A DNA stretch of 64,000 nucleotides from an uncultured Gemmatimonadaceae bacterium (GTDB lineage Bacteria > Gemmatimonadota > Gemmatimonadetes > Gemmatimonadales > Gemmatimonadaceae): contig CAVXGK010000001.1 in assembly GCA_963761305.1 (NCBI GenBank), positions 832,001 through 896,000 of the forward strand. Reading direction: 5' to 3'. Positions within the stretch are counted from its first letter, which is position 1. The number at the start of each line of letters is the position of its first letter. The notes beneath the pieces are model-generated. The model worked only from the letters and a program-made list of their open reading frames with translations. It had not been told where the DNA came from and did not search any database. The position numbers were made by a program, and so were the translations under genes. Positions 11,257 through 63,299 of the stretch are shown here, piece after piece.

Positions 11257-11930
11257 GCAAACACCCCCGCCGGCGGCACCGGCCCGCGCCCTCTCGCGGT
11301 TTCCGCGGCGCGCAGGGATGCGTCGCGGATGCGGTCGAATCGCTTTTCGGCGATCCAGTCGGCGGGCGCCATCCACGATCCGCCGCACGCGACGACGCGG
11401 TCGTACGCCAGGTACTCTCCGACGTTGGACGCGCTGATGCCGCCGGTGGGCATGAAGTTCACGCCGACGAATGGCGCCGCGATCGCCTTGAGATACGTGA
11501 GCCCGCCCATCGGTTCGGCCGGGAAGAACTTTAGCGTTTTCAAATCCAGCTCGAGGGCCGACTCGACCTCGGTCGGCGTCGCGATCCCGGGGTAGACAGG
11601 CAGCCCGAGCGACAGACAGTGCTCGACGACACGGCGGCTGAAGCCGGGCGCGACGATGAACCTGGCGCCGGCTTCACGCGCGGCGTCGACCTGTGCCGGC
11701 GTGAGCACCGTGCCGGCGCCGGCAAGGAATTCAGGCGCCTCCACGGAGATGCGTCGAATCGCGTCGGCGGCGCGCGGTGTCCGAAACGTGATCTCGGCGC
11801 ACGACAGGCCGCCGGCGGCGAGCGCGCGGGCGAGCGGAACGGCGTTGTCCGGGTCGTCGATGGTGATGACGGGCACCACGCGCGCCGCGCGCAATTGCTC
11901 GGTCATCGAAGGAGGCTTGGGAGTCGTCAT
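11253..11930 (-). CDS. eda: KDPG/KHG aldolase
   Basis: [32 protein letters not shown]. Confidence 0.95.
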
Positions 11931-13463
11931 GTGAGCGTCACCGATTCCGTGAGCTGGGCATCGAGCGCTGAAGCTACACCTTGCCTGCAGATTCGCATGA
12001 GGTGTTCAGCCACCAGCGTCGAAGAACCCGGGAATCCCGGTGAGGTCCGTGCCCCACAGCGTGCCGTCGGCGCAGATACACCGCGCCAGCTCGACGAACT
12101 CGTCGTCCGACCGAGGCGCCAGCGACTGCCACGTCGCGCGCAACCGTTCTCCCTCCGCGTCCGGCGGGACGGCGAGACCGGCCGCGCGCCGCTCGGCGTG
12201 CACTTCGCCTCGCATGAACGCGAGAAACGCCGCGAAGCCGAAGGCCAGCGCCGCCGGCGGACGCGCATTCTGCGACGCGAACGCCACGATCGACGGCACC
12301 ACGCGGACGCGCATCTTCGTCGTGCCGTGGAGCGTGATGTCGATCAGCGCGTGCTCGATGTACGGATTGTCGAAGCGGTCGAGCACCTCGGCGGCGAACA
12401 CGTCGGCGCGCGGAGCGTCGAGGCTCGGGGCGATTTCGTCGAGCATCGCGCGACGCAGGAACGCACCGACCCGGCGATCGCGCACCGCGTCGCGCACTGT
12501 GACGAGACCGGCCAGCAATGCCACCGGAACCACGATGGTATGACCGCCATTGAGCAGCCGAATCTTGCGCTCGCGATACGGACGGATGTCGGGCGCCACG
12601 ACGATCCGCGCGTCATCGCCCGGAAAGCCGAGCCGGGCGCGCAGCGCATCGTCGCCCTGGATCGCGAAGAGGGCGTAGCTCTCGCACGACGTCAGCATTC
12701 CGTCGCGGTACCCATGCAAGCGCTCGAAGCGCTCGGTCTCGCCGCGCGACGGCGCGCCCGGCACGATGCGATCGACGAGCGTGTTGCAGAACACGACGGC
12801 GTCGTCAAGCCAGGTGGCAAATCGCCGATCCAGCTTCCACGACGCGGCGAGCCCGCGAACCAGGCGCTCCAACGTTACACCATTGTCTTCGATCAGCTCG
12901 CACGGCAAAACGACGAGCCCACGTTTTGTATCGAAATCGAAGGCCGTCCCCCGCTCGGACAAGAAACGCGTGAGCTTGGCCGGAAACGAGGTTGGCGGGC
13001 TCGCATCCGGCGAATCGTCCGGGCTGAGCGTCAGCCCGACTTCGGTCGTATTCGAGACGATCAGCTCGACGTGCGGATCGCGCGCCAGCGCGAGAACCGC
13101 GTCCCATTCGCGGGTCGCCGAGAGTGCACGACTCAGCGCCGAGACGACGGTGTGTCGCGGATGCGCATCGTGGCCGTTGCCCCCTTGGATCGAGAGCGTG
13201 TACAGGCCGTCCTGCGCATTGAGGAGCGCGTCGCGCTGACTGACGGTGGACGCGATGGCGACGATCGACCCGTCGAAGCGGCCGGCCCGATTCGCCTCGT
13301 CGATGAACCACGCGGCGAATCCGCGCAAGAACGCGCCGGTGCCGAACTGCACCACGCGCTCCGGCAGATCGAGAATGGTCGCCGGCGGCACGTCGATGTC
13401 GTCGCGCCCACGCATCGGCGGCGACGCGACGAGCGCGCGCGACAACCTCGGCAAGCCGCTCAT
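11927..13463 (-). CDS. uxaB: Tagaturonate (altronate) reductase with a 1-nt frameshift near 12015; as read it stops at 12006
   Basis: QFGTGAFLRGF, SNTTEVG, SFPAKLT, PCELIEDNG, NTLVDRIVPG, RLLNGGHT. The expected C-terminal helix (VAEHLMRICRQGVASAL) lies in another frame, ending at 11927 and overlapping the eda ATG. Confidence 0.9.
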
Positions 13464-48131: not shown

Positions 48132-48674
48132 TCACGGCCCCAGGCGCATGTACGCTGCGTCGTACCTGGCGATCGAATCGGCGATCACTTTCATGGCTTC
48201 ATCGCTCTTCGCCCAGCCTTCGATCTGCACGCGCTTTCCTTCGAGATCCTTGTAGGTCGAGAAGAAGTACTGGACCTCGGTCAGCACGTGCCGCGGAATG
48301 TCCGCAATGTCGAACACGTCGTCGTAGTAGGGATCTTTCAGCGCCGCCGCGAGAATTTTGTCGTCCGGTTCTCCGCGATCCCGCATGCGCAGCACGCCGA
48401 GCGGGCGCACGTCGATCATGCAACCGGGGAACGTCGGTTCCTTCACGAGCACGAGCACGTCGAGCGGATCGCCGTCCTCGTGCAGCGTGCGCGGAATGAG
48501 GCCGTAATCGCCCGGATAGTGAACCGCGGAGTAGAGCACGCGGTCCAGCTTCATGATTCCGGTTTTCTTGTCGAGCTCGTATTTGTTGCGGCTACCCAAC
48601 GGGATTTCGATGACGGCGGTGACTTCTTCCGGCGGGTGCGGACCCGGCGGAAGGTCATGCCAATAGTGGATCAT
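48132..48674 (-). CDS. ppa: Family I inorganic pyrophosphatase
   Basis: IEIP, NKYE, YPGDYG, DGDPLD, DDK, YKDLE. Confidence 0.95.
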   Translation of the reverse strand: MIHYWHDLPPGPHPPEEVTAVIEIPLGSRNKYELDKKTGIMKLDRVLYSAVHYPGDYGLIPRTLHEDGDPLDVLVLVKEPTFPGCMIDVRPLGVLRMRDRGEPDDKILAAALKDPYYDDVFDIADIPRHVLTEVQYFFSTYKDLEGKRVQIEGWAKSDEAMKVIADSIARYDAAYMRLGP

Positions 48675-49721
48675 GACGCCCGCGAGGCCACGCCGTCCCG
48701 CGTCATGGTGCCTTTGTACGCCATCGGCGGCTCTTCGACACCGAAGTTTCCCGTCGCCAATTCGGCGACCCGCTCCATCTCACCGGGAGTGAGATCCGGC
48801 GCATCGCTCGCCGCCGCGAACTCGGCGAGCTGCTCATCGTCGTAAACGTTCGGCAGCGTGGTCACGACGCGGGGTTCGGCGAGCAGCCACTTGAGCGCCG
48901 CCTGGCCGAGCGTCATCCGCTTCGCGAGGAAGTCGAGCGTTTTGACTTTCTTGATGCCGTTGACCAGCCAGGATCGCGGGCGATGCCGCCGGTGGTCGTG
49001 CTCGGGGAAGACCGTGTCTTCGGTGTACTTCCCTTCGAGCATGCCCGACGCGTGCGTCACGCGGATGTTGAAGCAGCAGTTCGGGGCATGCCGCTTCGCC
49101 GCCTCGATCATCGCCGTGCCCGGATGCTGCTCGAGCACGTTCCAGATCATCTGGATCGTGTCGATGTCCGGCTCGCGCTCCACAAGGTCCGCGGCTTCGT
49201 ACAACCAACCAATGGCCGGACCGAACGCGGCCCCCCACGCCCGAATCTTCCCTTCCCGCTTGAGCTGCCGGAACGTGTCCCACAGCTCGCGGTCGTGCAC
49301 ATGCTCCATCTTCGCGTTGTGCAGCTGGAGCACGTCGATGTAGTCGGTCTCGAGGCGCTCGAGACACTTGTCGACGGCGAAGCGCAGGAACGCCGGATCG
49401 GTTCGCATCGGCAGCTCCGACTGCCCGCGGCGAGCTTTCTGCGCCGCCTCGTCGTATATGTCGTAGCCGACCTTGGTCGCGATCACGACTTCATTGCGAC
49501 GCCCGCGAAATGCCTCGGCGATCTGGCGCTCGGCGCGGCCGTTGCCGTAGGCATCCGCCGCGTCGAAGAACGTCACGCCGTGATCGTCGAGCGCGCGGCG
49601 CAGCATCGCCACGGCGTCGGCGTCCGTCTTCTCGCCCCACCAGCCGGTGGAGATGGTCCACGTGCCGAACCCGACTTCGCTCACGCGAATGTCGCGTGCC
49701 GGGAAAAGTCCGGTATCGCAT
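48671..49721 (-). CDS. Aldo/keto reductase with a 1-nt frameshift near 49695
   Basis: Likely true start MRYRTFPGT in one frame, continuing as DIRVSEVGFG, DAADAYG, IATKVG, LETDYIDVLQLH in the next. Confidence 0.9.
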
Positions 49722-49788
49722 GCCAAGAAGTCTAACGGGTGGCTGACGGGTACGTTTGCGTTGCATCTTTGTTCAGCCTCACCCCGCC

Positions 49789-52671
49789 ATGGCGATCACC
49801 GACCACCAAGCGAAGTACTTCGCCCACGAGCTCACCCGCCGGTTCCCGTCGGATTCCGAGGCGCGGCTGGCAGGCGCCCTCGTCGACGCCGTCGTCGACC
49901 TTAACCCGCACCAGGTCGACGCGGCGCTGTTCGCGTTTCGGTCTCCCCTCGCGAAGGGCGCTCTTCTCGCAGATGAGGTGGGACTAGGCAAGACGATCGA
50001 AGCCGGGCTCGTCATCTCGCAGCGCTGGGCTGAAAAGCGCCGGAGGATCCTGGTTGTCACCCCCGCGAACCTGCGCAAGCAGTGGTTTCAGGAGCTGACG
50101 GAGAAGTTCTCGCTGCCCTGCCGCATCCTCGAGGCGCGTTCGTTCAATCAAGCGCTGAAGGACGGGAAGATCCGGCCCTTCGATGGACCGGACGTCGTTA
50201 TCTGCTCCTACCAGTTCGCTCGGAGCAAGGAAGCCGACGTCGCGGCGACCCCGTGGGACCTCGTGGTCATCGACGAAGCCCATCGCCTGCGCAACGTCTA
50301 CAAGCCGTCCAACGTCATCTCGAACTCGCTCAAGCGCGCGTTCGGATCGTCCAACAAGCTACTGCTCACGGCGACGCCGCTCCAGAATTCGCTGCTCGAG
50401 CTGTACGGGCTCGTGAGCTTCATCGACGAGCACACCTTCGGCGATGTCCGCAGCTTCCGTGAGCAGTTTCTCGACGCTCGACGACGACGCCGTCTTTCGC
50501 GCGCTGAAGGAATCGTCTGCTACCGATCTGCCATCGCACCCTGCGGCGTCAGGTCGCGCCGTATATCTCGTACACCAAGCGTCGGCCGATCGTCGAAGGA
50601 TCGTTCACGCCGGACGACAGCGAGGATCGCCTCTACGACGCCGTCTCGGAGTATCTGCGGCGACCGAAACTCTCCAGCCCTGCCAGCGCAGCAGCGGACC
50701 CTGATCACGCTGGTTCTCCGCAAACTGCTCGCGTCGTCCACGTTCGCCATCGCGGGCGCGCTGCGATACCATGGCGGAGAACCTGAGAGCGAAGTTTCGC
50801 ACGGCGACTCCGAAGGAGCCGGTCGAAGACGCGCTCGGCGATGACTACGAGGCCCTCGACGAGTCCGCCGATGAGTGGGAGGCCGACAGCGGCGCCGACG
50901 AGGTGACCAATGGCAACCGAACCGCGATCGAAAAGGAGATCGCCGACCTCGACGCCTTCGCCGCGCTGGCGGGCGAGAATCCAACACAACGCAAAAGGCC
51001 GTGCGCTCCTCACGGCTCTGCAAGACGGCTTTCAACGAAAGCACGGAAGCTCGGCGCCGCCGGAAAAGGCGATCATCTTCACGGAATCGCGGCGCACGCA
51101 GCAATACTTGCTCCGCGTGCTCGCCGACAGGCGGCTAGCGTCCGAAGACATCGTCCTCTTCAACGGCTCGAACACCGACGACAGCTCCAAGGCGATCTAT
51201 GCGTCGTGGGCTGGCGCGGCACGCCGGCACGGATCGCGTCACGGGCTCTCGTAGCGCCGACATGCGCTCGGCGCTCGTCGACCAGTTCCGCGAGCGACGC
51301 GCAGATCATGATCGCGACCGAGGCCGGCGGCGGAGGGAATCAATCTCCAGTTCTGCTCATTGGTCGTGAACTACGACCTGCCGTGGAACCCGCAGCGCAT
51401 CGAGCAGCGAATCGGCCGCTGCCATCGCTACGGGCAGAAGCACGACGTGGTCGTCGTGAACTTTCTCAATCGAAAGAACGAAGCCGACGAGCGCGTGTTC
51501 GAGCTGCTCTCGGAGAAGTTCCAGTTGTTCGACGGAATCTTCGGATCGAGCGACGAGGTTCTGGGCGCGATCGAATCGGGCGTGGATTTCGAGAAACGCA
51601 TCGCCGACGATCTATCAGGACTGCCGGCATCCCGACGATATCAAGGCGCATTCGACAAGCTGCAGCTCGAATTGAGCCTAGAGATCAACGAGACGATGAC
51701 CGACGCGCGACGCAAGCTGCTCGAGAACTTCGACGACGAAGTGCGCGAGAAGCTCAAGATGAGAGCACGACGCAGTCGCAGGAAGAACGGGGCCGGTTAG
51801 AGAGAGCTCTTGATGACAGCTCACTCGCTATGAGCTGACGTGACGTCGCCGACTTCGGAACGGACGGCGGCTTCGATGCTGAAGGCGTCGCTGAGTCCTA
51901 GCGACGACTCGCGCGGGAAGGTACGAGCTGCCACGCGCAGCGGGGGAATAGACACCTCTATCGGCTCGGCCACGCTGGCAGAGTGAGGTGCTGTCGCGGG
52001 GCTAAGCAACGACGTTGCGCGGCGTAGAGATCGAATTCGACGGCGGTCCGGCTACGCGGGCAAGAACACACTGCTCGATGGGTTGGTCGGGAAGTCTGGT
52101 TGGATGTCGGCGTCGCTCTTTTAGGTAGAGTCCTTCGACAGGCAGGAAGATCACGTGATCTCGTCGCTCGGCTCGACGACGGAACGTCGTTGACGCCAGC
52201 GTATTGCCGCGCGATGCTCCGTGAAAGGAGCGCCTCCGCCGGCGATGTCGTGAGGCGCCAGAGATTGATTCGGCGCTTCGGTCGGCAGTTCAGCGGCGCG
52301 GCGCGGACATAGAGCTTGGCATCTCGGAGCGGAACGCTTCGGTTTTTCGAGGACGAAGTCGACGAAGCTCGACGGCTGGGCGGACGACCTGAAGCTGGCG
52401 CTCGAGCGCGAGCTGAAGGAGCTCGAGAAGAAAGATCAAGGAAGTGCGACGCTCGGCGTCGGGCGCGCTGACGCTCGAGGAGAAGCTCGCGTTCAGAAGG
52501 TAGGTGAAGGCGCTCGAGGCGCAGCGCAACGAGAAGCGGAAGCGGCTGTTCGACGCGCAGGACGACGTCGACCGCCGGCGCGGGGAGCTGATCGAGCAGA
52601 TCGAGGCGAAGCTGCGGCAGGAAACTGCGTTCGAGGAACTGTTCACCATCAGATGGTCGCTCTGCGCGTGA
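49789..52671 (+). pseudogene. SNF2/RapA-like helicase (type III RM-associated), 10 or more frame changes as read (decay or read errors)
   Basis: [69 protein letters not shown], coiled-coil tail ending LFTIRW, spread over several frames. Confidence 0.88.
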
Positions 52672-52696
52672 GCGGCTCTATCGAGGACATACGTCG

Positions 52697-54319
52697 TTGA
52701 GCAAGAAGCAGAAGCTGGAGTTGACGTGGGTCGGGAAGGATCAGCGACCGAATCTCGAGCTGAGGATTCTCATTGAGGATCCGACGTTTGTCATATCATG
52801 CGCCGCATCGTTCGAAGAGTGACCAGTTTTAACCGGCTTGTCTTCGGAGACAATCTTCTCGGCCTCAAAGCGCTCGAACACGAATTGGCTGGTCGCGTCA
52901 AATGCGTGTTCATTGATCCTCCGTATAACACGGGTAGCGCGTTCGAACACTACGATGATGGCGTCGAGCATTCGCTCTGGCTATCAATGATGAGTGATCG
53001 ACTAGAGCTGCTGCGCTATGATACTCTCAGAAGATGGCTCGATCTGGATCACACTCGACGACAACGATGCATGCACTACTGCAAGGTGCTTTGCGACGAG
53101 ATTTTTGGGAGCTCGAACTTTGTAGCTAACGTGATTTGGCAGAAGCTCCACGCGCGAAACAACTCGGCGCAATACCTCTCCGTCGATCACGACAACATTC
53201 TGGTATATGCGAAGGACTTGACATCGTGGGTCCGTAACAAGATCGGTAGAACGGAAGCGAGCGATGCAGACTTCTGGAATCCGGATAATGACCCTCGCGG
53301 ACAGTGGCGACGCTCGCATCTCACCGCGGCAAAGCCATACGCGGATGGCAAGTTCGAGGTAATCGGTCCACACGGCGACACTTTTCGACCGCGCGACAAC
53401 CGCTGGTGGAGCATCTCAATCGAGACATTCCGCGACTTGCAGGCTGATGATCGCGTCTGGTGGGGAAAGACCGGTCGGACCTTTCCTTTTCGCAAGCGTT
53501 TTCACTCGGAACTTGGTCAGCTTGTGCCGACAACTTTTTGGTCCAATGAGGACGTCGGCAACAACCGAGAAGCGAAACAAGAAAGCGCGAGCATCTTCGG
53601 CCGAGATAAGATCTTTTCGACGCCGAAACCGGAGCGTCTTCTCAACCGGATCATTCACATCGCCACAAACCCGGGCGACCTCGTTCTCGACTCCTTCGCC
53701 GGCTCCGGCACCACGGGCGCCGTCGCCCACAAGATGGGCCGCCGCTGGATCATGATCGAAATGGGCGAACACTGCCACACGCACATCATCCCGCGCCTGA
53801 AGAAAGTGATCGACGGCCAGGACCCAGGCGGCATCACCGAAGCCGTCGCGTGGAAGGGCGGCGGCGGCTTCCGCTACTACAATCTCGCCCCGTCGCTCAT
53901 CGACCAAGGACGCCTGGGGCAACTGGATCATCAACAAGGAGTACAACGCCGACGATGCTCGCCGAAGCCCTCTGCAAGCTCGAAGGGCTTCACCTACGCG
54001 CCGAGCGACACCGATCTACTGGCAGCAGGGCTGCTCCACCGAGCGCGACTTCCTCTACGTCACCACCGCCAACCTCGGCGCCGCCCAGCTCCACCAACTG
54101 AGCGACGACGTCGGCACGAGCCGCACGCTGCTCGTCCTCTGCACCGCCTTCCGCGGCGATACGGCCGAATTCTCAAACCTAACCGTCAGAAAGATCCCCA
54201 AGCACGTGCTCGACCGGTGTGAGTGGGGCCGCGACGACTACAGCCTAGCCGTCGCCAACCTCCCGCCCGCCCCGCCACCGCCGGGTCAGCAGGACCTCTT
54301 CGTCGAGGAACGGGCGTGA
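52697..54319 (+). pseudogene. mod: Type III-like DNA amino-methyltransferase (Mod, beta class), several frameshifts as read
   Basis: KQKLELTWVGK, GDNL, IDPPY, TPKPERL, LDSFAGSGTT, WKGGGGF, EWGRDDYSL. Confidence 0.88.
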
Positions 54320-55365
54320 CCGACGCCGAGTCTCCGCCGCCCGGCACGGAGATCGTCCTCTACCGAACGGAGCGTGGAATCCGGATCGACGTCCGGCTCG
54401 ACGACGGCACCGTCTGGATCACCCAGGCCCAGATGGCCGAACTCTTCCAGACGACGCTGCAGAACGTAAACGCCCACCTCCTGGCCATTTACGACGAGCA
54501 GGAGCTTCCGGAAGAGGCAACTATCAAGTCCTACTTGATAGTTCGAACCGAAGGAAAACGGCGTGTAACCCGCTCGGTCCGGCATTACAACCTCGAGGCC
54601 ATTCTCGCGGTGGGCTATCGCGTACGATCGGCGCGAGGCACACAGTTCCGCCAGTGGGCGACGGCGCGGCTCCGGGAATACCTCGAGAAGGGCTTTGTCC
54701 TCGACGACGAACGGCTCCGAAATCCGCCCGCAGCCGGCGTTCCCGACTACTTCGACGAGCTCCTCGAGCGGATTCGCGACATCCGCGCGAGCGAGCGCCG
54801 CATGTATCTGCGCGTCCGCGACATCCTCGCACTCGCGGCAGACTACGATCCCTCCGTACCGGAGACACAGCGCTTCTTCCAGACCGTTCAGAACAAGCTC
54901 CACTTCTCCGTCACTGGCAAGACGGCTCCGGAACTGATCGCCGCGCGCGCCGACCACGTGCTTCCCAACATGGGTCTGACGACATGGAAAGGGGACGCCG
55001 TGCGAAAGAGCGACGTCACCGTCGCCAAGAACTACTTGAACGAGGACGAGATCAGAGAACTCAATCTCATTGTCGTAATGTTCCTCGACTTCGCGGAGGA
55101 CCAGGCTCGGCGCCGAAAACACGTCTTCATGCAAGACTGGTCGGCTCGGCTCGACGACTTCCTGCGCTTCAACGAGCGCCGCGTGCTCGACAACTCCGGC
55201 ACGGTCTCGCGCGAAGACGCTGGGCGCCGCGCGCACGACGAGTACGGCAAGTTCCAGGAGCGACGGCGTATCCAGGCGGACGAAGAAGCGGAGCGCCGGC
55301 ATCTCGAGGAGATCCGGCGCACGATTCAATCGCTGCCGCGATCGGCCACCGGGAAAAGCGAATGA
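54316..55365 (+). CDS. Virulence RhuM-family DNA-binding protein
   Basis: VWITQAQMAELF, YNLEAILAVGYRVRSARGTQFRQWAT, RDIRASERR, QNKLHF, AKNYL; GTGA and ATGA overlaps. Confidence 0.92.
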   Translation: MTDAESPPPGTEIVLYRTERGIRIDVRLDDGTVWITQAQMAELFQTTLQNVNAHLLAIYDEQELPEEATIKSYLIVRTEGKRRVTRSVRHYNLEAILAVGYRVRSARGTQFRQWATARLREYLEKGFVLDDERLRNPPAAGVPDYFDELLERIRDIRASERRMYLRVRDILALAADYDPSVPETQRFFQTVQNKLHFSVTGKTAPELIAARADHVLPNMGLTTWKGDAVRKSDVTVAKNYLNEDEIRELNLIVVMFLDFAEDQARRRKHVFMQDWSARLDDFLRFNERRVLDNSGTVSREDAGRRAHDEYGKFQERRRIQADEEAERRHLEEIRRTIQSLPRSATGKSE

Positions 55366-58055
55366 ACCGCTACGTCAACGCGATCGCCGGCAGGTTGAGT
55401 CTTCGCGAGCCGCAACGAAAATCGCTCGAGATTCTGGACCACGTCGTGGAGATCGTGCCTGCCTCGAAGTCGGCTGATGTCACGGCGGCCCTGCGCACGA
55501 TCCAATCGGAGTTCCCGACGGTCACGGACTTCGAGCGCGACTTTCCTTCGCTGTGCTTCGCGCTCGCCACCGGTGTCGGCAAGACCCGACTCATGGGCGC
55601 GTTCATCACCTATCTACATCTGGCGCACGGGCATCGACAACTTCTTCGTTCTGGCGCCGAACCTCACGATCTACAACAAGCTGATCGCCGACTTCACGCC
55701 GAACACGCCGAAGTACGTGTTCAAGGGCATCGCTGAGTTCGCGACACATCCGCCGGAGATCATCACCGGCGACAACTACGAGGCGGCGCGCGGCGACGCT
55801 CTTCGATCAGATGCGTGCGCTGCAAGGTCAACATCTTCAACATCTCGAAGATCAACAGCGAGGTCCGCGGCGGCAAGGTCTCCGCGCATCAAGCGGCTGT
55901 CCGAGTACATCGGCGAGAGCTACTTCGAGTACCTGGCCGAACTTGACGGACCTGGTGCTGCTCATGGACGAGTCGCATCGCTATCGGGCGTCGGCCGGCG
56001 TGCGGGCGATCAACGAGTTGAAGCCGATCCTGGGCCTGGAACTGACGGCTACCCCGCAGGTCGAGGACGCGCAGCGGCGCAGTGCCATTCAAGAACGTGA
56101 TCTACAGCTATCCGCTCGCGCAAGGCCATGACGGATGGCTTCGTGAAAGAACCGGCGGTCGCCACGCGCAAGAATTTCGACGCCGCGGGCATACCGGACG
56201 ACGCGCTGGAGCGGCTCAAGCTCGAGGATGGCGTCCGCCTGCACGAGAGCGTCAAGGTCGAGCTGGAGATGTACGCCCGCGAGACAGAGCGCCGCGGTCG
56301 TGAAACCGTTCATGCTGGTGATCGCGAAGGACACGACGCACGCGGCCCAGTCTGGTCGCAACTGATCGAGTCCGATGCCTTCTTCGAGGGCCGGTATCAA
56401 GGACCAGCGTCATCGAGGTCCACTCGAGTCAGCACGGGCGACGAAGAGGACGACGATGATCGAGCAGCTGCTCACGGTCGAGGACGCCGACGAACCGACC
56501 GAGATCGTCATCCACGTCAACATGCTGAAGGAAGGCTGGGACGTCACCAACCTCTACACGATCGTCCCGCTGCGGCGCTGCCAACGCGCGCACGCTCGTC
56601 GAGCAGTCGATCGGCCGCGGACTGCGACTGCCCTACGGCAAGCGCACCGGCGTGGCGGCGGTGGACCGGCTCAACATCGTCGCGCACGATCGGTTTCAGG
56701 AGATCATCGACGAAGCAAACCGCCCGGACTCGCAGGTGCGGATGGCGACGGTTCTACTCGACGTGAGCCAACTTGCGGAACGAACGGAGAGCGTCGCGGC
56801 GCCGAGTCGCCTGGACATCGCTTTGGGCGCCGCGCCCGGGCCGTCGCTTGCCGGCGCGTTCGTCGTCGCGCCGGAACTCGTGTTCTCCAATCCGGAAGAG
56901 CAGCGCGTCGCCACAATCGCTAGCGCGGTTATTGAACGGCTCGCCTCGAATGCAACGGTTCTCCCGACATCCCGATATCTGTCGCAGCCGGAGGTTCAAG
57001 CCGAAATCGCGCGCGCGGTGCAAGCGGAGTATGAGCCCGCGCAGACGGAGCTTGCCATCGACGTTCGGTATCCCGACATCGCGGCGGTCGTGGCGAAAAC
57101 GGCTGCAGTCATCGAGAAGGAGACGATCGATATCCCGCGCATCCTCGTGGTGCCCAGAGGCGACATTCGCGCGCACTTCGAGCCGTTTGCGCTCGATCTC
57201 TCAGCGCTGCGCTACGCTCCGGTGTCGGAGGACCTCTATATCCAACACCTGCGGACCGGCAGGGTCGACGAACTAGCCGTGAGCGGCGGAGGCATCGAGG
57301 AGCAGAGTCTCGAGGCCTACGTCGTAGGCGGCCTGGTCGCGTTCGACGACGTGTCCTACGACGACAACGCGGAGCTTCTCTACGATCTCGCTGGGCAGGT
57401 CGTGAGTCATCTTCGCAGCTATTTGTCGGAGGAAGATACCCGTCGGGTGCTCCGCTATCACCAGCGCGAGATCGCACGATTCGTCCACGCCCAGATGCAG
57501 CCGCACTTTCACGAAGATGCCGCGAGCGGGTACGAGGTCGTGGTAAGCCGGGGCATCACACCGCTCAAGCCGAGCGCGTACACGGCGACGGTGTCGGCCG
57601 GAGTGCGCGACTATCGTTTCTCGCCGGACGACAAGGCCAACATCGCGAAGTACTTGTTCGGCGGGTTCACGAAGTGTCTCTACGACGTTCAGAAGTTCCA
57701 GTCCGACCCTGAGCGCGTGATGGCGTCTATCCTGGAACGCGACGCCCGGAAGTGGATGCGCCCGGCGAAGGGTCAATTCCAGATGTACTATCACTCGGGG
57801 GCGAACCACGCCGAGTACCAACCCGACTTCGTGGCCGAAACGGACGACTCGGTGCTTATGATCGAAGTGAAGGCGAGGGCCGACCTCGGCGACGCCGATG
57901 TGATCGCGAAGGGCGAAGCCGGGCGCGAATGGTGTGAACGGGCGACTGGGTTCGTGACCCGGCACAGCGGCAAGCCGTGGGAGTACGTGCTCATCCCGCA
58001 CGACGCCGTGTTGCTCAACTCGTCGCTCGCAAGCTTGGCGCAGCGCTTTGGCTAG
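55362..58055 (+). pseudogene. res: Type III-like restriction helicase-endonuclease (Res), multiple frameshifts in 55630-56580
   Basis: RLSLREPQ, LATGVGKT, MDESHRY, LTATP, MLKEGWDV, EQSIGRGLRLPYG; C-terminal PD-(D/E)xK YQPDFVAE..IEVK. Confidence 0.88.
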
Positions 58056-59843
58056 TAGCGAGCAGGTTCTGTCGCCGCGACAGGCGCAATGGTCGATCGA
58101 TGACCACTCGCTAGAGCGATTTGTCCGGGCCCTCTCACAGCCGGCGTCCTCCGACGAGTGGTTTCGCGTCCGGCGCTCTGCCGAAGAGTTGGCGCTATTA
58201 CCAGGATTCGACACGCTGATCGCACTCGACCACAATCGCATCGAAGAGTTGCCGCATCAGATCGACGTCGCCATGCGGGTGCTACGCCACATGGGCGGCC
58301 GTGCCCTGCTCGCCGACGAGGTTGGCCTTGGGAAGACGATCGAGGCTGGCCTCATTCTCAAAGAGTTGGCCGTGCGCGGCCTCGCGCGCCGCATCCTGAT
58401 CCTCACGCCCGCCGCGCTAGTCGATCAGTGGTGCGGCGAGCTCGAATCGAAGTTCTTCGAGGAGTTCGAGACGCCGCACGATCCCGACGATTGGCGGCGC
58501 GCGAATCGGGCGATCGCCTCCTACAACCTTGCCGTGCAGAAACGGCAGCAGGAGGCGATTCTCGCGGAGCCGTGGGATCTCGTGATCCTCGACGAAGCTC
58601 ACAAGGTCAAGAACGCTCAGGCGGCCACTTACAAGTTCATCTCGCAGATCCGCCGCAACTACATCCTGCTGCTCACGGCCACTCCGCTCCAGAACGACCT
58701 CCGAGAGCTCTACAACCTGGTCACGCTGCTGCGCCCGGGCCAGCTCGGAACGTGGAAGAACTTTTCTGTCAAGTATCTCGTTCGTGGCGATCGGCGGCGC
58801 GTGAAGAATCCGGCTTTGCTCAAGGACCTCACGTCGCAAGTGATGGTTCGCACTCGGCGGTCCAGCGTGGCACACACGCTGGCGCTCCCGAAACGGCTGC
58901 CACGACATCCGCAAGTCGATCTGACGCTGGAAGAACGGACGCTGTACGATGCGACGGTGGGGCTGCTGCGCGATCTCTACGCCCGAGGCTTCATCCAGAT
59001 CACGCGCGCGGAGGCCGAGGAGGACGCCCGGCGGCGCAATCGACGCACGGGCAAAGGCATCATGAGCCTGGAGATCATCCGCCTGTGCCAACGCCTCTGT
59101 TCGTCCTCGGCCGCGTTGAGCGACTCGCTGCACCACCTCGCTCAGGGTGAGCTCGTCTCGCCGCAGTATCGCACGAAGTCGCTGGAATTGGCGGCGAAGG
59201 CCAGGGCGACACGGGAGCATGGAAAGATCCGTGCGCTCCAACGCGTCCTCGAGGAACATCGTGAACACGTCATCGTGTTCTCGGAGCACCTGCCGACGCT
59301 CCATGTAATCCGCGAACATGTGATGCAGCACGGGCGCCAGCCCATCGTCTACAAGGGAGGATTGTCGCGGGCCGAGCGCGCGAAGCAGCTCAAGCTCTTC
59401 GAGCAATCAAGGAACGGTGTGCTCATTTCGACCGCGCGGGTACTGAAGGCTTGAACTTGCAGTTCTGCAACGTGCTCGTGAACTACGAGCTGCCATGGAA
59501 TCCGATGATCGTGGAGCAGCGCATCGGTCGTATTCACCGAATCGGCCAGAAACGCGACGCGCACATCATCAGCCTGGCGGCCGAGGGCACGATCGAGGCA
59601 CATGTGCTCACGCTGCTCGACAAGAAGATCAAATTGTTCGAGCTCGTCGTCGGTGAGCTTGACGTGATACTCGGCGATTTCGGCGGCGCGGAAACCATGG
59701 AACAACGCGTCACCGCCGAGTTCCTGAAGGCCAATAGTGAGCGCGAGCTCTCGACGGCGTCGATGCGATCGGCGATGACATCGCCCGCAGTCGGTCGCGG
59801 GTCTCGACCAAGAACGCCTCAACTCGGACGTGAGCGGCGATGA
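58048..59843 (+). CDS. Second SNF2/RapA-like helicase (YqhH-like), frameshift near 59433; C-terminus may extend to 60156
   Basis: [26 protein letters not shown], then [28 protein letters not shown] in the next frame. Start overlaps the res stop. Confidence 0.88.
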
Positions 59844-60156
59844 CAACGCGATGCGCCTCGAGCGGGAGTTCGCGCATCTGCCGATACCGGCTCGCGTCCG
59901 GCTCGGCTTCGGTACGAAACACCTGGACATCGTCGAAGGAATTCGCGCGAGACAGGAGACGCTGGTCATCGCCGCCGCGGAGATCCTCGAGGCACTCGAG
60001 GGCGCGGATGTTCGCGGGTCGCGGCAGTCCAGAGAGTATGGCTCGCTGGTTTGGATCCACGGCGTGACGAGGCGCGGACGCGGGATCGACTTTGAGGTTC
60101 GGGCGGATCGGTTGCCCATGCTGCTCGTCACGCTCAACGCGGCCCCCGCGGGATGA
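59830..60156 (+). CDS. Short hypothetical ORF, or frameshift-separated C-terminal domain of the second SNF2
   Basis: 108-aa ORF with normal codon usage; frame open from about 59779; stop overlaps the next ATG (ATGA). Confidence 0.55.
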
Positions 60157-62264
60157 CCGCGCCGACCTCGCAGATTCGCCAGATCGCCTCGGCGACCGAC
60201 CGTCGCATCCTGTCGCTTCTCGACGGATACGTGGCGCTCGCTGGCGGCAGCCTGACGCTGCTCGAGACTGATCTCTACCAGCTCAACGTTCCAAAGGGCG
60301 ACGAGGGACGATTCGGCGGGCGCTCGGTCGTGCGCCTGGCGTTCACCGTCGACGCGCTCGAGCTCGACGATCGCGCCGAGATGGCCATCGTCGGCGGCTC
60401 GTTCGTGAACGAATTGATCGACGCGATTCGCGGGCGCGGGTCGCGGCTTCTCGCCGGCTGGCTGGTTCCCCAGGCGGCGAGATCCGACGCCAAGACGCGC
60501 CTGCCGGTGCCGGTGAGGAATGGCGCCGTCTCGGAGGCGCAGTCGTCGCTGGCGCGACATCGCGTGGGTCGTCTCACGGCGCGCGTGGCTATTCGCGCGG
60601 GGACCGAGCTCAAAGAGCGGCTCGAGGATTCGAGTCTCTACGATCTGTGCAGTGGCATCGCGCTGCCTCGAGACGTCGCGGCCGCCTGCCCGTCGGCCCC
60701 GCCTCCGGAGGCGGTGACCGAGTACTGGCGGTCGATGGAGTCGGCACCGACCCAGAGGATGTCGGCTCTCGTCGAGAAGATGCTCGGCGATCTCGACGCG
60801 AGGCTGCGCTCGGAAATCGAAGAGGTGGCACGCGGCGCCGAGCGCTCGCTCGCGGAGGAGGTACAGCGAATCGACCGGTACTACACGGCGATGCTTCATG
60901 ACACTGGAGATGCGGACTCACAGCGCGCGATCGTGGCGGAGCATCGCCGCCGCGCGGAGGAAGAGCGGGACCGCCACGCGGTTCGCGCCGTCGTCCACCC
61001 GGTGCAGTTGACCGAGTGGGAGATGATCGCGGAGCGCGCGACTTGGAAGCTCAACACACGGACCGGTCACGAAGCGTACTTCACGGCGCAGCGGCCGCTC
61101 GCCGGGGCTGCCGTCTGGGTATTCGGCTGCGAGACGTGCGGAACGTCGTCGCCTCGGGGGCTCCACGTCTGTCTCCGTGACCATGTCGCGTGCGACGCCT
61201 GTTCTGCCGCGTGCGCAGTCTGCGCGCAGCACTACTGTCGTGAGCACGGCATCACCGGATGCCACGTCGATGGCAAGCCGGCCTGCGACGAACACGCCAG
61301 GATGTGCTCAGTCTGCCGCCGCGCGCACTGTTCGGTTCACGAAGGCACCTGCTCAAACGGCGGCCACGCTGCCTGTTCAAGCTGCCTTGGATCGTGCGCC
61401 ATCTGCGGTCGCGTCGTGTGCAACACTCACGCCTTGGAGAGCCGCTCCGACGCGCCGAAAGGCGCGCGCCGGTTCTGCCAGACGTGCGCGGTCTCCTGTG
61501 AAGGCGGCGTCGCCGAGATCGTTGGCCCTGATGAAGTCACGGACTGCGCGAGCTGCGAGCGTGTCGTTTGTGAGCGCCATCGATCCATCTGCGCCGTTGA
61601 CAGAAAGGTGCATTGTTCGAGGCACCTGCGGCGAACCGATCGATCGCGCCGGCTCGTCTGTGAGCACGATCGGGTGGCGTGCTCGCACGAAGCGAACGCC
61701 GTTTTCGCGCGAGACGAGGTCGCCGCGTGTGCCACGTGCGGACGCATCAACTGCTATGAACATCTGGTGAAGTGCGTCGTCGATGGGCTGGGCCATTGCC
61801 CCATGCATCTAGCCGCCGTCAGCGACAAGCCCGGGGCGTTCGTTTGTGACCCGCACCGCTCGAACTGCCACGTAGACGGTCGGCCCTACACCATCGAGGG
61901 CACGAGCACGTGTCCCTCCTGCGGGCGCCTGGCGTGTGCGCAACACAACCGCGAATGTGAAAGCTGCCGGAGGACCATTTGCACGATGGATTTCTCGGCC
62001 GGACGTCCGAAGCGGTGCGCGACCTGCGAGAAGCTCGCGCCCGAGTCTGACGCTCCTCGCGAAATCATCGCGGCGGCGCGGGCCCTGCGCGGAGAAACTG
62101 CCTCGCGGCCGAAGGCGTGGAGGATGGCACGCGATGCCCGGCATCTGGTCGCGGAGATCGAGCTTGGCTGGACTCGCCGGCTCGTCTTCGCCGTCCCGCA
62201 CGGGCAGGCTCGGGCCGAGCGGGCAGTAGCTCACTCTGCGCTCGGCTCGCGCGTCGTGCGCTGA
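60153..62264 (+). CDS. YqhG-like N-terminal domain fused to ~20 tandem Cys/His zinc-binding repeats
   Basis: Intact 703-aa ORF; helical segment EEVQRIDRYY..EEERDRHAVRAVVHPV; 15-aa C-x2-(C/D)-x4-C-x2-H repeats at 61128-62027. Confidence 0.8.
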   Translation: MTAPTSQIRQIASATDRRILSLLDGYVALAGGSLTLLETDLYQLNVPKGDEGRFGGRSVVRLAFTVDALELDDRAEMAIVGGSFVNELIDAIRGRGSRLLAGWLVPQAARSDAKTRLPVPVRNGAVSEAQSSLARHRVGRLTARVAIRAGTELKERLEDSSLYDLCSGIALPRDVAAACPSAPPPEAVTEYWRSMESAPTQRMSALVEKMLGDLDARLRSEIEEVARGAERSLAEEVQRIDRYYTAMLHDTGDADSQRAIVAEHRRRAEEERDRHAVRAVVHPVQLTEWEMIAERATWKLNTRTGHEAYFTAQRPLAGAAVWVFGCETCGTSSPRGLHVCLRDHVACDACSAACAVCAQHYCREHGITGCHVDGKPACDEHARMCSVCRRAHCSVHEGTCSNGGHAACSSCLGSCAICGRVVCNTHALESRSDAPKGARRFCQTCAVSCEGGVAEIVGPDEVTDCASCERVVCERHRSICAVDRKVHCSRHLRRTDRSRRLVCEHDRVACSHEANAVFARDEVAACATCGRINCYEHLVKCVVDGLGHCPMHLAAVSDKPGAFVCDPHRSNCHVDGRPYTIEGTSTCPSCGRLACAQHNRECESCRRTICTMDFSAGRPKRCATCEKLAPESDAPREIIAAARALRGETASRPKAWRMARDARHLVAEIELGWTRRLVFAVPHGQARAERAVAHSALGSRVVR

Positions 62265-62315: not shown

Positions 62316-63299
62316 CTACGCGCCGGAGTTGATCATCTTCGCGGCCTCGCGCGCGAAGTACGTGATGATCACGTCCGCGCCGGCCCGCCGAATACCCAGG
62401 AGCGAGTCCATCATCACGCGCTCCCCGTCGATCCAGCCGCGCTGCGCGGCCGCCTGAATCATAGCGTACTCGCCGCTCACCTGAAACGCGGCGAGGGGAT
62501 AGCCGGTCTCGTGCTTCACGCGATGGATGACGTCGAGGAACGGACCCGCCGGCTTTACCATCACCATGTCCGCGCCTTCGTCGATGTCGAGACGGACCTC
62601 GCGGAGCGCTTCGTCGGAATTGCCGGAATCCATTTGATAGCCGCGCCGGTCGCCGAACTGCGGCGTCGACTCGGCCGCCTCGCGAAACGGCCCGTAGAAC
62701 GGCCCCGCGAACTTCGCGGCGTAGCTCAGGATGGGCGTGTCGCTGAAGCCGTCGGCGTCGAGCGCCGCGCGAATCACGCGCACGCGCCCGTCCATCATGT
62801 CGCTGGGCGCCACGATGTCGGCGCCGGCGCGCGCGTGCGACACCGACTCGCGCGCCAACAGCTCGAGCGTCGCGTCGTTGTCGACGACACCGTCGCGGAG
62901 CACGCCGCAGTGGCCGTGCTCCGTGTACTCGCACAGGCACACGTCGGTGATAACGACGAGGTCGGGCACGTCGCGCTTGAGCGCGCGCACTGCCTGCTGC
63001 ACCGGCGCGTCGTCATTCCAGGCTTCGGATCCGGTCGCGTCTTTGTGATCGGGAATCCCGAACAGAATCACCCCGCCGATCCCCGCATGCACCGCCAGCC
63101 GCGCATCGATCACCAGCTCGTCGACCGACGTCTGAAACACGCCCGGCATCGAGTCGATCGAGCGACGGACTTTGGTGCCGGATCGGACGAAGAGCGGCAG
63201 CACCAGCTGCGACGCGCGAAGCGACGTTTCGCGGATGAGACGGCGAAGCGGTTCGGTGCGACGCAGCCGGCGAGGACGGAAGGCAGGAAACTCAGGCAT
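62316..63299 (-). CDS. hemB: Porphobilinogen synthase (Zn-type)
   Basis: [47 protein letters not shown]. Confidence 0.97.

Follow-up and report, generated by a model that had tools for sequence, protein, structure and literature searches.

A restriction-modification island in an uncultured Gemmatimonadaceae bacterium carries a self-standing gene pair predicted to encode a split RapA-like motor

Type III restriction-modification (RM) enzymes hemimethylate an asymmetric site, and cleavage needs ATP and two inversely oriented unmethylated sites. In systems of the EcoP15I type, a beta-class methyltransferase, Mod (DPPY before FxGxG), is encoded beside Res, which joins a ResIII ATPase domain to a PD-(D/E)xK-like C-terminus. 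Class 1 DISARM, ARMADA and BREX type 3 place a RapA-like SNF2 gene (DrmD/ArmA/BrxHII) beside an adenine methyltransferase gene, and their defining parts are a YprA/DUF1998 helicase, DrmC and a PglX-type methylase/PglZ (parts of 10.1101/2025.09.15.676423 and PMC13463889). Escherichia coli RapA (HepA; PDB 6BOG, 8SPG, 8T0L, 4S20) is an RNA-polymerase-associated Swi2/Snf2 ATPase, with the N-terminal RNAP-interacting domain at residues 1–107 and part of the Spacer, Linker 3 and the CTD at residues 703–967 (PMC8501970, in part). Here we describe a locus with these among its closest known systems in a 64,000-nucleotide stretch (the window) of an uncultured Gemmatimonadaceae soil bacterium (GenBank assembly GCA_963761305.1, contig CAVXGK010000001.1, positions 832,001 to 896,000). 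Six co-directional genes, SNF2-A, mod, RhuM, res, SNF2-B and a Cys/His-rich gene (Zn), lie there between an aldo-keto reductase gene (AKR) and hemB. We consider it fairly probable that they form a 12.6-kb island of two separable modules: a type III-like RM cassette that includes SNF2 as accessory and RhuM as cargo (SNF2-A, mod, RhuM and res, 49789–58055), and a two-gene unit, SNF2-B and Zn (58048–62264), predicted to be a split RapA-like motor.

The Zn family comprised at least 144 relatives of ~650–790 aa, unnamed and without Pfam domains, and the labelled ones were almost all from Gemmatimonadota. Members were found in 6 of 61 close relatives, and in 24 of the 401 genomes sampled from the phylum (13 of 146 genera). 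From species-representative genomes we collected 80 Zn loci (several duplicating genomes compared here under other names), 67 of them with an upstream stretch long enough to show whether SNF2-B was there. SNF2-B directly preceded Zn in 66 of these 67. The exception, L015:9953-11974, was a solitary Zn gene beside a MacB-like ABC permease gene, with a family match beginning at residue 54. By comparison, mod, RhuM and res were present in two of the 80 loci: L016, which duplicates the locus of G023, a genome of the same genus as the window genome, and L017, in the more distant genome G061. The pair thus stood without mod and res in 64 of the 66 loci in which SNF2-B precedes Zn. A spacer of ~0.9 kb separated the two genes at L084:2699-3634 and L085:181-1051, and may hold an inserted small gene. 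The genes flanking the pair varied widely among loci, the majority having metabolic, transport, signalling or repair functions.

The Zn and SNF2-B trees had the same main clades. The RM-linked copies clustered, forming a small Zn clade (SH-aLRT 98) that includes the RM-less L015 and is sister to L036, while in the SNF2-B tree L016 and L017 were sisters (support 92). In the largest clade of stand-alone pairs, a conserved GATTCCCTATATTGCG element was located 20–33 nt before the SNF2-B start in most carrying loci (range 20–47). An AT-rich element, GATTCCCTATATTGCGACCCC, was found upstream of SNF2-B in L018, L026, L030-L032, L047, L062, L067, L083, L093 and others, and the exact TATATTG in 24 of the 49 upstream regions listed. 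The TATATTG element probably represents a -10 box, followed by a short leader, and was absent from the RM-linked loci, where SNF2-B abuts or overlaps res. Because most loci are without mod and res, a promoter-like element belongs to the pair itself and housekeeping genes predominate around it, we regard SNF2-B and Zn as a self-standing two-gene unit. The pair is a new variant within the RapA-like SNF2 proteins, and its joining to an RM cassette is lineage-specific. By the earlier note on this DNA, its reading would be refuted if SNF2-B and Zn were syntenic core genes next to hemB in relatives lacking mod and res; this holds by half, since the pair is indeed conserved in relatives lacking them, but it is neither core nor tied to hemB. 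We found no published work on the Zn family, or on such an SNF2 partner, in the literature searched.

Several Zn-family contigs (L019, L021, L022, L024, L035, L036, L048, L079, L089) were binned to Myxococcota, Betaproteobacteria/Burkholderiales, Planctomycetia, Rokuibacteriota and actinomycetes, through either mis-binning or horizontal transfer. The third-position G + C content of L019 was clearly above that of the Gemmatimonadota loci.

The prediction of a split motor comes from comparing both proteins with RapA. SNF2-B matched the ATPase core of the RapA profile from position 120 to ~630 only, its residue 33 aligning to position 120, and it has ~60 residues ahead of the ATPase core. Since the match spans no more than this, SNF2-B is without the RapA N-terminal domain and tail. 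With 180 bits for the G061 protein against a curated cut-off of 576 (NF003426), it also falls far below the threshold of the RapA family. The C-terminal 160 residues of SNF2-B were found only in this family of ~700-aa SNF2 proteins. Canonical RapA was detected in none of the 61 relatives (E <= 1e-40).

The Zn protein had no match in Pfam, PADLOC or NCBIfam. A permissive Pfam scan of 21 members returned 11 families, each in one member only, and an Atlas search with the protein gave unnamed Gemmatimonadota clusters only. Its AlphaFold2 model (mean pLDDT 89.0, pTM 0.56) gave E. coli RapA as all top five Foldseek matches against the PDB (E 5.2e-6 to 3e-3). In a VIA-align superposition, residues 8–293 of the model lay on RapA 703–967 (Z 8.3, root mean square deviation (rmsd) 7.1 Å, 246 aligned residues); no other structural match to the model covered more than 80 residues. 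The stretch of RapA matched here is missing from SNF2-B, and that the pair is a split RapA-like motor is a well-supported prediction. Unlike RapA, the pair is divided over two genes, and Zn adds a ~300-residue Cys/His array and a small C-terminal domain. The array (residues ~320–630) contains six CxxC-x4-CxxH motifs. Its 47 conserved ligands, of which 37 are Cys and 10 are His, each occur in at least 90% of 21 sequences and would suffice for a predicted ~12 zinc sites. An optional insert carries ~12 further ligands. Weak structural matches of the array were to assorted zinc-finger proteins, and residues 633–700 form a small alpha+beta domain.

With respect to function, a transcription- or repair-type remodeller is our tentative suggestion for the pair, while a role as a defence unit in its own right is possible but doubtful. 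In its specific form, which we hold to be rather unlikely, the defence explanation takes the pair alone as a new system of two genes for defence or against mobile elements, with a position behind res that would be an ordinary case of defence-island clustering. The patchy occurrence in 13 genera, the variable genomic contexts, the contigs binned to other phyla and the capture in a mobile RM island would all suit such a system, as would the best profile matches of the pair, which were DrmD_b, DrmD, DpdE and BrxHI. Against this, neither protein showed a nuclease, a methylase or any other effector domain in Pfam, PADLOC and NCBIfam, and the strong conservation of SNF2-B (69% mean column identity) does not suggest an arms race. 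The survey of homologue neighbourhoods proposed in the earlier note also failed to show an enrichment of defence genes around stand-alone pairs, and we rejected this idea: PADLOC matches (E <= 1e-10) were obtained for 4 of 86 neighbour proteins, all generic (a kinase, a UvrD-type helicase, an ABC ATPase and a WYL regulator).

Repair-type genes near stand-alone pairs included MGMT, DinB_2, a UvrD-exonuclease fusion (1226 aa) and an ATP-dependent DNA ligase (L056, L093, L094, L055, L047, L030-L032). These neighbours were partly divergent in orientation from SNF2-B, and the association is weak among inter-related loci. As the four gene types recur mostly in related syntenic loci, we did not count a DNA-repair neighbourhood as independent evidence.

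Apart from a 'short ORF' treated below, the gene string of the window was the same on re-analysis as in the earlier note, which had described plus-strand genes between AKR and hemB with overlapping stop and start codons (Table 1). These overlaps were GTGA at 54316, ATGA at 55362, a TTG at 58048 located 8 bases ahead of the res TAG, and ATGA at 60153. For mod, the frameshift-aware alignment to the G061 protein placed the true start near 52697 instead of 52798.

Table 1 Genes of the island and its flanks in the window, with frame breaks counted against the G061 proteins.
Feature	Position	Strand	Frame breaks	Remarks
Aldo-keto reductase gene (AKR)	48671..49726	-		Left island flank
SNF2-A, DrmD_b-like (RapA-like) SNF2 ATPase, ~960 aa	49789..52671	+	23, plus 2 stops	Window copy frame-broken
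mod, type III-like N6/N4 DNA methyltransferase (DPPY ... FAGSG)	52697..54319	+	8	Pfam/PADLOC
RhuM-family gene, cargo slot between mod and res	54316..55365	+	0	Intact; PF13310, PADLOC PDC-S05
res, ResIII SF2 ATPase domain and C-terminal PD-(D/E)xK-like motif	55362..58055	+	13 (55629-56576)	Pfam/PADLOC
SNF2-B, SNF2 ATPase, 704 aa in relatives	58048..60156	+	3	Relatives' ORFs, Pfam
Zn, Cys/His-rich protein, 703 aa	60153..62264	+	0	Intact; matches no library
hemB	62316..63299	-		Right island flank

Domains were recognized on pieces of open reading frames (ORFs). SNF2-rel_dom was found in 49747-50841 (Pfam, E 1.6e-32; PADLOC DrmD, 224.6 bits) and a second time in 57958-59451 (E 2e-33), N6_N4_Mtase in 52777-54219 (PF01555, E 7.5e-36; PADLOC MTase_III, 451 bits) and RhuM in 54223-55362 (PF13310, E 4.8e-113, 377 bits against a cut-off of 33.7; PDC-S05, 513.8 bits). 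ResIII and REase_III fragments (Pfam, PADLOC) extended across 55399-58052, with PADLOC REase_III PDLC03648 on every window res fragment. The motifs DPPY, FAGSG, GVGKT, DESH and IEVK were legible in the window translations. In G061, mod, RhuM, res, SNF2-B and Zn were each a single intact ORF, on which PF01555 (E 6.4e-44), PF13310 and ResIII (E 7.7e-20 on the 900-aa Res) were detected. SNF2-A of G061 consisted of two overlapping ORFs (L099:10553-11707 and 11569-13452), split at DrmD_b profile position ~310; this may reflect a true frameshift, a naturally split gene or an error.

The block is a 12.6-kb insertion between AKR and hemB in 3 of the 31 genomes of the genus (the window genome, G023 and G007). 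In 21 of the 30 other genomes, AKR and hemB were on one contig, 17–160 nt apart. G023 had the block between AKR and hemB on one contig (C29; loci L010 and L104) and an empty AKR-hemB site on another (C23; L101), so its bin may mix two strains or the island may be polymorphic in the population. In G007 the two ends were on separate contigs, one with AKR and then SNF2-A (88% identical), the other with Zn and then hemB. The G + C content of the island was 63.4%, compared with 66.7% for the rest of the window. The first AKR codons in the window (49690-49730) were unlike those of the empty-site alleles (L100, L102, L103), indicating replacement of the native AKR start on insertion. At the island ends, the search for flanking direct repeats or att-like sites gave only 12-nt matches at chance level, and the Pfam scans of the locus showed no integrase. 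Promoter and terminator sites predicted in the island were no more numerous than in shuffled sequence.

In G061, the same six genes were located at a different site, flanked by genes for a DUF2779 protein and a lactate permease. Co-directional and tightly packed, the block is a real unit that behaves as one island. To this extent the single composite RM-plus-remodeller unit of the earlier note holds, as a co-directional island recurring in G061; it nevertheless falls into two separable modules, the first a common cassette and the second self-standing. That all six genes are one integrated defence system, in which SNF2-B and Zn join Mod and Res in a single machine and might, for instance, load or activate Res on foreign DNA or provide a back-up when restriction fails, seems to us improbable. 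A good deal would fit it: the six-gene order was shared, at 50–83% protein identity, by the window genome, G023 and G061 and, as far as the two ends go, by G007; the occupation of two different insertion sites indicates that the block moved as a unit; the RM-linked copies of both proteins group in one small clade, and their SNF2-B genes are without the promoter-like element of the stand-alone pairs; and the res/SNF2-B and SNF2-B/Zn overlaps were present in both the window genome and G023. In G061, however, res and SNF2-B were 7 nt apart and not overlapping, and the 64 loci with the pair but without mod and res speak against a joint function, as does the variable composition of related cassettes.

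These cassettes were found in a plasmid protein search with the C-terminal SNF2-A ORF of G061, which gave 648 records, 44 of them covering at least 80% of the query. We inspected 5 of the 12 loci listed, from Rhizobium, Salmonella, Deinococcus, Cupriavidus and a planctomycete (NZ_CP072872.1, NZ_CP117699.1, NZ_CP092195.1, NZ_CP016951.1, CP036351.1). All five, from four phyla, had a co-directional string of SNF2, methyltransferase and DEAD/DEAH helicase genes with optional cargo, and their SNF2 proteins (~950 aa) were 46–50% identical to SNF2-A. Zero to four cargo genes (AIPR, VapC, Abi, IS256, an AAA gene) preceded the site-specific methyltransferase, and zero or one (DUF262) followed it, ahead of the DEAD/DEAH helicase or 'type III res'. 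The window shares with them the gene order, the SNF2-A homologue and the variable cargo slots, but four of the five plasmid loci were headed by a small helix-turn-helix gene, their cargo was different, and none of the five carried a second SNF2 or a Zn gene. The RM cassette therefore has a common layout of a known kind, in which RhuM occupies a cargo slot; that such slots often hold unrelated cargo (AIPR, VapC, Abi, DUF262) is a further point against one integrated system. A name for the SNF2-Mod-Res cassette was not found in the literature searched, which included parts of PMC11232893 and PMC12839542.

G023 had an extra 227-aa ORF on the minus strand between SNF2-A and mod (L010:17031-17714), without a Pfam match and absent from the window and G061; it marks another cargo slot. 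Mod of the window was 54% identical to that of G023 (L010:15365-17008), compared with 80–83% for RhuM, the C-terminal part of Res and SNF2-B, and this low identity suggests a specificity swap within the same island.

Compared with type III RM, module 1 has the beta-class Mod beside a Res with a ResIII ATPase, and differs by the upstream SNF2 gene and the RhuM gene between mod and res. Res is a distant 'type III-like' branch by its sequence, because the curated type III Res model scored only 28.7 bits against a cut-off of 564. Its C-terminus gave a weak Hjc-like Pfam match only (E 0.0026-0.003), together with a PDF...IEVK motif recognized by eye. Like class 1 DISARM, ARMADA and BREX type 3, the locus has a RapA-like SNF2 gene beside an adenine methyltransferase gene, and the best profile of SNF2-A was DISARM_DrmD_b. 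The two G061 ORFs together reached 690 bits (305.2 + 384.8) with DrmD_b NF038318, under its cut-off of 950, and no YprA/DUF1998 helicase (DrmA/DrmB or ArmC), DrmC, PglX-type methylase or PglZ was detected with Pfam and PADLOC in the ORF pieces of 49747-62261. On these grounds, we ruled out a DISARM or ARMADA identity of module 1. Zorya can be dismissed, as its ZorD matches were 52–83 bits against a cut-off of 1500 and PADLOC gave no ZorA/B match in the locus. The earlier note had recognized the second SNF2 plus zinc-repeat module in no named system, and no named PADLOC model covered the full gene content.

The 'short ORF' (59830-60156) that the earlier note had placed as a gene between SNF2-B and Zn is not a gene. 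It is the C-terminal part of SNF2-B, detached from the rest by frame breaks at 59434, 59748 and 59795; in two relatives, SNF2-B was one 704-aa ORF including this part (L010:9535-11649; L017:7825-9939). The suspicion of indels in the same note was right: we counted 47 frame breaks in the island by frameshift-aware dynamic programming against the G061 proteins (taken from L017 and, for SNF2-A, from the ORFs of L099 on the same contig), leaving out two events at alignment edges (res end and Zn end). The DNA alignment of the window with G023 had indels at the same spots. Most likely, these breaks are assembly errors in a poorly covered accessory region. Clustered frame breaks of this sort can create false small ORFs in an accessory island, as they did in this window.

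The alternative, which we think improbable, is a dead island, in which the frame breaks are real mutations and SNF2-A, mod, res and SNF2-B are pseudogenes. In favour of decay, the breaks cluster in the island: in this genome, rpoB and rpoC were open and without frame breaks, hemB and AKR were whole, and in the ~8.2 kb downstream flank, aligned with G007 at 74.5% identity, gaps were in-frame or intergenic, bar one +1/-4 pair. The breaks were also not enriched at homopolymers, and SNF2-A is split into two ORFs in G061 as well. Low-depth contigs from three sequencing runs of one study, however, showed small indel differences from the window at 11 places in the island, where they lacked its extra bases (among others at 50474, 50509, 52787, 53021 and 56073) or held its missing ones. 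One 224-nt run contig differed from the window by 1 substitution and 5 gap letters. The runs held 6–21% of the sampled words, as short contigs at 2–4x depth, and are informative for the covered parts only. Moreover, 37 of the 47 events were one-base insertions, patchily placed beside clean stretches of up to 2.9 kb within the same genes, and large deletions were absent. The window Res was 71% identical to that of G061 (638/897), about the same as the 69% between G023 and G061 for the C-terminal part of Res, which argues against an excess of substitutions in the window copy.

Several results weigh against the reading of two separable modules with a split RapA-like motor. The RapA match of the Zn model is borderline by the note of the tool itself (Z ~8, rmsd 7 Å, 10–12% identity) and has no counterpart in sequence comparison: hhalign of the Zn profile with SNF2-A-like proteins gave a probability of 0.5%, and the best hit of the Zn sequence profile search against the PDB had an E of 0.85. 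The patchy spread and the contigs binned to other phyla are more in keeping with an accessory or defence gene than with a housekeeping gene. The six-gene block has persisted across 50–70% protein identity and at two insertion sites, with genes that overlap or nearly touch, and an integrated system would look the same. If the 47 frame breaks are real, only RhuM and the Zn protein would work in this genome.

Under the two-module reading, Mod would methylate host sites, and Mod-Res would cut unmethylated incoming DNA after ATP-dependent sliding, in the manner of EcoP15I. SNF2-A may act as an accessory translocase, by analogy with DrmD or BrxHII. Judging from gene order only, SNF2-B and the Zn protein very probably form a complex. 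The Zn protein would likely supply in trans the Spacer/CTD part missing from SNF2-B, giving one ATP-driven translocase, and its array of ~12 predicted zinc sites may bind or select the target, a nucleic acid or a protein. The RM-linked pair is probably co-transcribed with res, because it has lost the promoter-like element and abuts or overlaps this gene; still, for the pair, a role as a subunit of the restriction enzyme is less likely than that of a second module carried along. A bolder possibility, to which we give little weight, is that the pair is a new type of two-protein motor, a RapA-like ATPase whose regulatory tail sits on a separate subunit with an interlocked array of ~12-14 zinc sites, and that in the RM-linked clade it was taken up by a restriction operon as a working partner, boosting Res or acting when restriction fails. 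The six genes would then be a new composite defence system.

The interest of the locus lies in the SNF2-B/Zn pair and not in its RM part: a conserved, unnamed family, a motor apparently divided over two genes, and an unusually large predicted zinc-binding array. DISARM, BREX type 3 and ARMADA all have a RapA-like helicase as a core component. A putative natural split form, found by itself as well as behind a restriction enzyme, offers a handle on the function of the RapA tail and on whether such motors assist restriction.

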